Below are positions 54,001-57,000 of a stretch of DNA of 64,000 bases, piece by piece. Source of the DNA: a plasmid; the NCBI RefSeq assembly GCF_054482595.1, contig NZ_JBTHVH010000004.1; one strand, given 5' to 3'. Numbering within the stretch: position 1 is the first letter of the stretch; each line of letters starts with the position of its first letter. The position numbers were made by a program.

Positions 54001-57000
54001 GCATATGGACCGCATCAAGTACCTGAAATGGATAGCTGAAGAATCACCAACTGATGATGAAATCGACAACTACGATAGTATCATTAGTCGGGGCGCAGAA
54101 AGGGCCGAGAAGGTTCAGTTGTCTTTAAGACGTTAATATACGGGAGTTTAAATGTTCGCAGAAATCAAAGATAATTATTCGTTAGGTGGATAAAGAAAGG
54201 TTGCCATTACCAGCTTTCGACGAGTCGAAAATAAAAACCTTATTTATAGTGACAGGGAGTATGAGCTGACGCTTGCCAATGGAACAATAATTAAAAATGT
54301 ACTTAGAAAAGAAGAGTGGGAACTGTTAGAAAGCAATTCAATTAAGGTTATATTATAACGAAAATATATTTACAGTTTTGGATAGGTTTCAAACGAGTCC
54401 GGACATTTGTACCTGAAGTATCTGACATTACAGTTAAGTGACGATTATGTCAGCACGTCTGTTGCTGGCAGCTTAGCTATCGGTCTAAAAGCTGATCCAT
54501 TAATAATTCTTCGTAAAGCCCAGAGGTATCGGGCTTTATTACAATATCCGTTATTTCGAAGCGTTCAAGTACAAATTGCAGATATTCCGGAGTAACGTAG
54601 TAGGGATCAGGTTCAGCCAGATTAGTATAGAGTGGGTCTTCTGCTGCATTAATGTCATAATCAATGCACATATGAAACCACTGCAAAGGTGGATCCCAGC
54701 CTAACATCACCTGAACAATTCCCTGATTGCTTTTCACCTCATACCAGTGCTGGCTCATACTTAGTCCTTAAGAAAATTTGTCATCGGAAAATAACACGAA
54801 GCCTGCATCATCGAGGCGCATAACCTTCTTCCCTTAACGCCTGTTGTAATTTATCAACTGCGCTTTTCATTACCCAGGCTTCTTCGTCACTCACAGCACA
54901 ACCACGTAGATCGCTCCAGCTCAGACGTTTAACAAATTGAGCAAGGGCCATAGTTTCGTTCTCATCAAGCCGCAAACTCAGTGTCTCAATACCTTCCACT
55001 ATCTAACCTCCCTTATAATGAAAAATGGCGCTTTACTTCTGACCAGATGCCGAAGCCTTGAATGCAGCCGGAACTGTCGTTGTTTCTACTTTACAGAAAT
55101 GGAATTAAAAAGTGGTGATGCTGGGCACGTTTCTTTTCCAGCCGGGGTTTAAGCCAGAGCTGAAACTCATTCAACTTCTCAGCAGCCAAAACCGCTTCAA
55201 CGGGGAAAACTTTATATTTACCCTGTTGCTGAGGTTCACCCAGCCATCGCCTGATGGCTCCGTCAGTCCATAAACGAGTCTCTTTTAGCCTAGTTACAGT
55301 GACCCATTTTCTGGACCATTCATCAAATTGTCGCTGGCGATCCCGATAACGTTGTTCTTCCTGCTGCCGAAGCCACTCGCGATCAACAGCAAATTTTCGG
55401 TATCCAACAAAGAGCCCTTGTACTTTGGCCATGTCATATTCCGGTTGCTTAGAGTTACTCATTCAACCAAAACCTAAACGTCGATACAAACTCTGTTTCA
55501 TAACCAGGGTTTTATCCTTACCGCGACAGTAAGTAACAGGGGCTGCATAAACCGGTCATTTAGTCCGTTATGCAAAAATTATTGAGGATCCGGGCTGTTA
55601 AACTGTTCTTCCTCTTTCGCTTCCGGTGAAAAGGGGAGGTGTCACCCTGCGAGCCCGTGTAGTGAAAGGGATTCGTCGTAATACAGGCCAAAGGCTAACA
55701 TGACCGCAAAGGACGCCCGGGCGACCGGATACCTGCCGGGTTGTGCGATGTAAAATCCGGAAGCAGTGATAACACAAACAGGCCCCTACAGAGTAAGGAT
55801 TGTGATGGACGATAAAGAGCAGTTTACGAATCTTGTGGCAAAGCATGCCTCCGGACTCACCGAAGAGCAGCTGGCCGGGTACGATGCCTGTTCCCTGGAT
55901 GGTGAATGCGTCACGCCTTCATACGAGGTTTTCCGGGGGTATCGTACCCGCCACACACTGGATGAATTTCTGGAGATGGCCATATCGCTGAATGCCATCC
56001 ACCCGGATGAATATTTAACGGATATGCTGCTGAAGCCTCATGAGGTGATCGGCGCTCTGGCCGATGAAGGCGACCAGCTGAACAACGCCACCCCGGTTTA
56101 TTTCTTTCCGGATACCGGCGTCTATGCAGCGGCCGTTAGTGAAACCCGGGTGCTCGATGCCTGGCTTTGCTGGCCATGCTACCCGGCGAACTGGTAACGC
56201 GGCCGTTGGAATTGCACCGGCCGGATACGAATTTAACCGACCCCGTGGCGGGAAGGCTATCAGAGTTGCATGTCCTCATCCCTCAAGCCCCCTGCCAGGC
56301 CCCAACGTGCTGTCAGGCTTCGCCTGATTCCCGATCTGCGCCGATACTTCAGCCGATAACTTTTTGTTTTCTTTTTATTTTCTTCCCATTTCCTCAAAAA
56401 TCGCGGGCGGCGTGGACAGGGCACCATTGCCGCATGTGGGGTCTTAATAAGGGCAGGGTGGTCAGTTTTGCTCGATGCCAGGGGTAGGCCCTCCCCTTCA
56501 TGGGATGAGGACATGCAAGTAAGCTAACTATCTGAAATGACGAAGGTTAATTTGGTGAATGTCGCTTCATATTAATGTTGTGTCACTTATGATCGTATGT
56601 AGCTGGTTGCAAAGAGGAGCGATGAGACAATAAAGTTGTATCGCTAACAAGATTTATGCTGCCACATAGTAACAGCCTAAAAGTTGTACGCCCTATTTAA
56701 CAGCTTTTAGGCTGTTAATTTGATATTACAGCTTTTAGGGTGTATGTTTAGGAAACAGCCTGCAAGGTGTATCAGAGGAAACTACTGAGGCCAGCTTATG
56801 ATCAATAATGATTACCCGTTAAACACGCTCAACCAGCTGCGTCCCTTGCTCATTGGTTTTCGCAAGGCGAATGGCCTGACGCAAAAAGACCTGTCCGAAA
56901 GGTTAGGCGTCACTCAACAGACATACTCACGTCTGGAAGCCAACCCTGCCAGTGCGAGCATTGAACGGCTATTCAAGGTGTTTTCCATCCTGGGCGTAAA

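Follow-up and report, generated by a model that had tools for sequence, protein, structure and literature searches.

The window analyzed here was a stretch of plasmid DNA of 64,000 nucleotides (RefSeq assembly GCF_054482595.1, contig NZ_JBTHVH010000004.1), which contained the hipBA module of an IncHI2 plasmid backbone. The hipB gene (56798–57094, forward strand) encoded a 98-aa antitoxin of the Xre/Cro type with a helix-turn-helix (HTH) domain (HTH_3, 4.5e-15) and a C-terminal Trp. It was followed after a gap of 4 nt by hipA (57099–58424, same strand), which encoded a 441-aa Ser/Thr kinase toxin with the domains Couple_hipA (PF13657, 3.7e-21) and HipA_C (PF07804, 3.6e-51). Four palindromes, named O1 to O4 and considered here as candidate operators of HipB, fell within a 99-bp stretch 5′ of hipB.

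The plasmid HipA matched structures of Escherichia coli K-12 HipA at E = 1e-100, with 41% identity over 425 residues. The alignment kept the kinase motifs LSIAGAQEKTALL (the Ser150 loop), ATDGHAKNFS and YDVLSA; in HipA kinases, Ser150 lies in the autophosphorylation loop, and DGHAKN and YD hold the catalytic and Mg-binding Asp residues. HipB was only ~23–27% identical to K-12 HipB, and its best sequence matches in the PDB were E. coli HipB chains (1e-6). The AlphaFold model of HipB (pLDDT 67, medium confidence) comprised four helices, and residues 74–96 (pLDDT <50) were disordered. With this model, the top Foldseek matches were HipB chains from DNA complexes (target-normalized TM ~0.8). The C-terminal W98 was invariant among 16 homologues and aligned to K-12 W88, which has been described as universally conserved (PMC3376134). 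Since HipA matched its K-12 counterpart this closely and the best sequence and fold matches of HipB were themselves HipB proteins, the two genes are, by sequence and predicted fold, a genuine hipBA pair forming a HipBA type II toxin-antitoxin module. No further copy of hipB or hipA was found in the 64-kb window. The coding sequence of hipB in RefSeq starts at ATC 56801 (97 aa); the in-frame ATG at 56798 lies one codon 5′ of it, and a Shine-Dalgarno-like GAGG (56787–56790, forward strand) was read directly 7 nt ahead of this ATG. Homologues mostly have ATG at the position where the RefSeq hipB starts at ATC.

The four sites were read directly from the window, and all of them fitted ACAGC-N6-G(C/G/T)TGT with a length of 16 bp each. 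O1 (ACAGCCTAAAAGTTGT) was located at 56672–56687, or 56671–56688 in an 18-bp frame, and its position was conserved in homologues. O2 (ACAGCTTTTAGGCTGT, 56700–56715) was the only site with perfect 5-bp arms, whereas O1, O3 (ACAGCTTTTAGGGTGT, 56728–56743) and O4 (ACAGCCTGCAAGGTGT, 56755–56770) each had a single right-arm mismatch. The 6-bp centers were not palindromic themselves, and O1 and O4 corresponded to O2- and O3-like sites in reverse orientation (I2, 87% complementary; D2, 83%). In the 18-bp frame the sites read TACAG-N8-CTGTA and were separated by gaps of 10, 10 and 9 bp. The original prediction had described four regularly spaced palindromes upstream of hipB with starts 27–28 bp apart, and this was borne out by start-to-start steps of 28, 28 and 27 bp; the last site had been put about 28 bp before hipB, where 27 nt were counted between the end of O4 and the ATG. 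Across the 64 kb, ACAGC-N6-GSTGT with at most one mismatch occurred at O1–O4 and at two unrelated positions (27137 and 47912). The expectation from shuffled sequences was 0.0043 sites per 99 bp, so that four or more sites would occur by chance with P ~1.5e-11 per stretch, or ~1e-6 for the whole window.

We propose, with a probability of roughly 0.85, that O1–O4 are the putative autoregulatory operators to which HipB binds in this plasmid hipBA operon. The palindrome, shared by many related hipBA loci, is apparently an undescribed HipB recognition sequence. Literature searches on IncHI2 hipA, HipB operators, HipB electrophoretic mobility shift assays (EMSA) and the motif strings found no description of this operator, and an EMSA paper on Acidovorax citrulli HipB defined no binding site. 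The regulatory logic is the established one for hipBA, to which the operator sequence and its family consensus are added; since the proposed mechanism is the textbook one, this is a modest conceptual advance.

The evidence that carries this reading came from related loci. A HipB search yielded 585 relatives, 16 of which were aligned, and the alignment seeded a genome scan that gave 68 loci in Enterobacterales and Burkholderiales. The comparative counts below refer to 67 loci, consisting of 66 scan loci and one locus on a Cronobacter plasmid; the two most distant scan loci (Bacteroidota) had no site and were left out. A match in the locus scan required 8 or more of the 10 arm letters. The 11 kb directly 5′ of hipB contained 214 motifs (19.4 per kb) vs. 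143 in the other 271 kb (0.53 per kb), a 37-fold enrichment. Neighboring sites were separated by 27 bp in 111 cases and by 28 bp in 25 cases, with 54 bp where a degenerate site was skipped. The prediction had been made to depend on the presence of the repeats in hipBA homologues, and the array indeed stood 5′ of hipB in nearly all loci at the same interval of 27–28 bp, with HipB identity as low as 41–50%.

A1, C2, A3, T14, G15 and T16 were 97–100% conserved, the flanking T(0) and A(17) were ~75% conserved, and the centers and spacers were variable, which gave the family consensus T-ACAGCYTATAGGCTGT-A. An alignment of eight species had its invariant columns in the arms of all four sites, and nothing was conserved 5′ of O1. 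The locus on the Cronobacter IncFIB plasmid, whose hipA was ~70% identical, possessed four sites at steps of 28, 27 and 28 bp, while the rest of its DNA had diverged. When the 2.6 kb upstream in the window were compared with all related loci, no similarity was found. Because this upstream DNA matched no locus and conservation ended 5′ of O1, the array travels with hipB and not with its neighbors.

This bears on a different explanation, in which a different protein, for example a regulator of the plasmid or the host, occupies the sites, or they are iteron- or centromere-like repeats of IncHI2, and HipB regulates elsewhere or nowhere. The even spacing does resemble that of iterons or parC-type repeats, the plasmid is large and conjugative, and the link between HipB and the sites is a prediction from sequence comparison. 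However, the array also precedes hipB in chromosomal loci and on plasmids unrelated to this one (IncFIB of Cronobacter and IncC/IncR), as well as in Serratia, Pantoea, Rahnella, Morganella, Paraburkholderia and Cupriavidus; in all these places the flanking genes were unrelated and hipB was the sole common partner. Moreover, a dyad-symmetric site of 16–18 bp suits a dimeric HTH protein of the Xre type. We therefore consider a role as iteron- or centromere-like repeats, or as sites of another protein, extremely improbable.

Comparison with characterized systems placed the putative HipB operators close to those of E. coli in layout. E. coli HipB binds cooperatively to four TATCC-N8-GGATA operators (PMC3376134, PMC3920265), with published gaps of 10, 21 and 10 bp (PMC4150777). 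K-12 carries them at start-to-start steps of 28, 39 and 28 bp, with 21 nt between the last one and the ATG (27 nt here). Both loci have four dyad-symmetric sites directly 5′ of hipB and on its strand, an Xre HTH repressor gene followed by the gene of the HipA kinase, and a disordered HipB tail ending in Trp. The half-site had been given as ACAGC; this stands, and the family consensus adds one base per side (TACAG-N8-CTGTA), so that the 18-bp frame has the same 5+8+5 organization as in E. coli. The 28-bp steps and 10-bp gaps equal those within the K-12 pairs O1–O2 and O3–O4, and the solved HipB–O1–O2 complex (4YG1) has HipB dimers on sites 28 bp apart. The suggested mirroring of the four-operator layout of E. 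coli thus held for the number of sites and the step within a pair, but not for the even spacing (28/28/27 here vs. 28/39/28), which applies the pair geometry of E. coli uniformly. The half-site also differs (TACAG(C) here, TATCC in K-12), as had been claimed: a search of 56198–56797 for TATCC-N8-GGATA with up to two mismatches found none. In addition, hipB and hipA are 4 nt apart here and overlap by 1 nt in K-12, and the locus here is plasmid-borne.

HipB homologues with private palindromes in fours were already known, since Shewanella oneidensis has four GTGTA-N6-TACAC operators with 34-bp gaps (PMC4150777). Like S. oneidensis MR-1, the plasmid locus has four copies of its own palindrome at regular intervals, each with 5-bp arms and a 6-bp center if it is written as ACAGC-N6-GCTGT. 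The two differ in the arm sequence, in the gaps (34 bp with a 50-bp period there, 11–12 bp here) and in the fourth operator, which lies inside hipB in S. oneidensis, whereas all four sites are 5′ of hipB here. No GTGTA-N6-TACAC array was found 5′ of the plasmid hipB. Other type II operons with Xre antitoxins (HigA and MqsA) share an HTH antitoxin acting on palindromes that overlap its own promoter, but they usually have one or two palindromes and not a phased four. To our knowledge, the phased four-palindrome array is a feature of hipBA only among characterized systems. Judged from its sequence, the array would work like the hipBA operators of E. coli, but with an operator sequence of its own.

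The altered half-site was accompanied by an altered recognition helix. TQQTYSRLE in the plasmid HipB differed from KQATISNFE in K-12 at 5 of 9 positions, which agreed with the change of DNA specificity that had been suggested, and within the clade the helix (QQTYARLE) was invariant. The loci of Cupriavidus and Ralstonia (L053, L059 and L065–L070) had the half-sites ACAAC/GTTGT and a HipB with GVSQQSY instead of GVTQQTY. The pairing of GVSQQSY with ACAAC and of GVTQQTY with ACAGC is only suggestive of co-variation between HipB and its half-site, as it concerns one clade and is confounded by phylogeny; unlike Cupriavidus and Ralstonia, Paraburkholderia, with GISQQSY in HipB, keeps the ACAG half-site. 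In the Burkholderiales loci L036–L064 (Paraburkholderia and relatives), tandem repeats of the entire 27-bp unit, spacer ATTTTGCATTT included, lay at about −150 to −35 relative to hipB.

If HipB acts at O1–O4 as proposed, a HipB dimer, most likely within a HipA2HipB2 complex, would use its HTH to bind each (T)ACAGC-N6-GCTGT(A) palindrome, each recognition helix reading the invariant ACA/TGT arms. Repressors of the HipB type impose a sharp bend on DNA, which would be absorbed by the A/T-rich center (CTATAG family-wide, A4/T4 tracts at this locus). A promoter scan predicted a −35 element TTGATA (56720–56725, forward strand) between O2 and O3, within the 12 bp that separate them, and a −10 element TATGTT (56743–56748, forward strand) beginning at the last T of O3. 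The promoter would then wrap O3, which occupies the 17-bp spacer, and O4 would lie over the predicted transcription start at ~56755, as placed from the −10 element. Because the predicted −35 and −10 elements flank O3 and O4 covers the start, occupancy of the operators would exclude RNA polymerase and lead to autorepression. Close relatives have a TTG-containing hexamer where the −35 element of the window lies. In a weighted scan the best-scoring promoter was around O3 in 13 of 26 Enterobacterales loci, which was the modal position. Consensus promoter scans on two of the related loci (L013 and L003) gave differing or no calls. In Burkholderiales the best −10-like element was TAGACT inside the last operator.

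The strict register of 27–28 bp, as in O1–O2 and O3–O4 of E. coli, suggests cooperative binding and HipA–HipA contacts between neighboring complexes. Mutations of G22, P86, D88 and D291 weaken the dimerization of E. coli HipA on DNA (PMC7758455), and the equivalents of these residues were retained in the alignment of the plasmid HipA. If such contacts form, the array would also keep HipA inactive. By analogy, the register, the conserved residues of the HipA N-subdomain and the higher site number where hipA is intact would fit a DNA-templated dimerization of HipA similar to that of E. coli. We infer HipB binding, the promoter position, repression, cooperativity and HipA bridging at the array from these observations.

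Several points weigh against this mechanism or parts of it. The predicted promoter matched the consensus at just 9 of 12 positions, in roughly half of the relatives the scan scored another position best, a consensus promoter scan found nothing in the hip promoter region of E. coli K-12, and some lineages have −10-like TATAAT or TAGACT within the last operator. Since the K-12 hip region gave nothing and the last operator of other lineages seems to hold a −10-like element, the assignment of the hipBA promoter to the flanks of O3 is a weak prediction, and lineages may differ in where the promoter sits relative to the array. The putative HipA bridging is deduced from spacing and residue conservation. 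The HipAB–DNA assembly of S. oneidensis differs markedly from that of E. coli, so the E. coli geometry cannot be assumed here. A literature search found no binding, footprint, transcription-start or reporter data on this locus.

The number of sites followed hipA. Exactly four sites were found in 37 of the 51 loci with full-length hipA (range 3–5, mean 3.9), vs. a mean of 2.0 sites at orphan hipB loci (n = 9). Together with the conserved HipA residues that are tied to DNA-templated dimerization in E. coli, and with natural variants that have 5 or 6 in-phase units, this relation is a point in favor of an explanation in which the HipB-bound array is mainly a scaffold that sequesters and inactivates HipA, with promoter repression being secondary or needing only one or two sites. 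Such a scaffold overlaps with the autoregulatory operators proposed here and does not exclude them, and orphan hipB genes retain one or two sites by their start, which fits simple autorepression; as the main function of the array it is very unlikely. Orphan genes of the hipB type, which lacked a full hipA within 2 kb, were seen at L004, L010, L018, L022, L029–L031, L034, L035 and L045, where usually one or two motif copies were present, mostly 27–28 bp apart; L004 is the IncC/IncR plasmid pEsco-36073cz (2412–2455). Three loci (L005, L006 and L008) contained remnants of hipA only, yet 3–4 sites.

The proposed operators could also form a more extended structure. Because the spacing is uniformly 27–28 bp and not arranged in two pairs (28/39/28), every neighboring pair of complexes could be bridged. 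It is possible, but rather doubtful, that evenly phased HipA2HipB2 complexes, all bridged by HipA–HipA contacts, build one continuous assembly that silences the promoter and cages HipA. If this were true, the number of 28-bp units would determine how much toxin the plasmid's addiction module can buffer and at what threshold it switches; four units are usual, fewer occur at orphan hipB, and five or six in natural IncHI2 variants. With its distinct half-site, the plasmid module would also be insulated from chromosomal HipB of the K-12 type, which is present in most E. coli hosts.

Palindromes at such a position could instead act as nucleic-acid structure, namely an RNA hairpin, a terminator or attenuator against upstream read-in, or a DNA cruciform, and not as protein sites. 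O2 was flagged as terminator-like, as its arms are extended here to a stem (TTAACAGC/GCTGTTAA) that is followed by TTTGATATTA, and the predicted fold of the RNA of 56660–56800 paired O1 with O2 in an 18-bp stem, at −48.1 kcal/mol (z = −4.4). This fold is an expected by-product, because any similar palindromes in mixed orientation would fold so, and the stem extension and the T-run of O2 were not conserved in homologues; the terminator or RNA-fold reading of O2 was rejected. What homologues conserved was the arm sequence (ACA/TGT), and no pairing was preserved by compensatory change. Terminators have neither a fixed register of 27–28 bp nor a count of four, and given the predicted promoter, O1–O3 would lie outside the transcript from the hipBA promoter. 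An Rfam scan of 56150–56900 gave no family match, with two sub-threshold matches to miRNA families that were noise. Nucleic-acid structure is thus a very unlikely explanation of the four sites.

If O1–O4 are the operators of HipB, the element T-ACAGCYTATAGGCTGT-A, repeated four times in a register of 27–28 bp, would offer a concrete target for EMSA, footprinting and reporter work. The motif would mark a large clade of hipBA in Enterobacterales and Burkholderiales, and would represent a third class of HipB specificity beside those of E. coli and Shewanella, of use for the study of how DNA recognition by Xre antitoxins diversified. Because the half-sites differ, the plasmid module and the chromosomal hipBA of E. 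coli are predicted not to repress each other, which bears on whether a chromosomal copy could serve as an anti-addiction element.

The segment with the array had counterparts of 100% identity on large E. coli plasmids and adjoined ter genes. A total of 1,360 plasmid records contained it. These plasmids were mostly conjugative, were typed IncHI2/IncHI2A and came mostly from Escherichia, Salmonella and Enterobacter, and 286 of the 290 occurrences of the segment in complete E. coli genomes were plasmid-borne. IncHI2 plasmids are major carriers of mcr, extended-spectrum β-lactamase and metal-resistance genes. Among the 30 records listed of 1,172 matching plasmid records, no feature was annotated in the operator region. 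Papers on IncHI2 name hipA and hipB just as stability genes, without regulatory detail (PMC4855149).

The matches comprised two IncHI2 lineages, with at least 99% and 97.7% identity, respectively. The IncHI2A lineage was 97.7% identical over its shared part of the 1,931-bp query and kept all four sites; its substitutions were located in the site centers and gaps, and the operator arms were unchanged. Over 56650–56800 this second lineage was 94.7% identical and thus more diverged than over the longer shared stretch including the genes. The homology of the two lineages started at 56649, 23 bp 5′ of O1, and the DNA beyond was unrelated.

Between a hypothetical gene (55766–56197) and the array there were ~450 bp without annotation (56198–56648), which held a promoter-like site (56566–56593) and unannotated open reading frames on both strands. 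The first 110 bases past 56500 also matched an Enterobacter cloacae plasmid (H54), where no hipBA accompanied them. Downstream of hipA, two hypothetical genes (58485–58691, 68 aa; 58793–59203, 136 aa) stood beside hipBA in both IncHI2 lineages.

The 28-bp unit ACAGCTTTTAGGCTGTTAATTTGATATT (window 56700–56727) showed natural copy-number variants on plasmids. An E. coli plasmid typed IncHI2A (NZ_CP074702.1, L075, 170–330) contained the unit three times, which gave six operators and 56 additional bp, and a Salmonella plasmid (NZ_CP060675.1, L076, 170–300) contained it twice, which gave five operators and 28 additional bp. Every added unit also copied the −35-like TTGATA, and the 28-bp phase was maintained.

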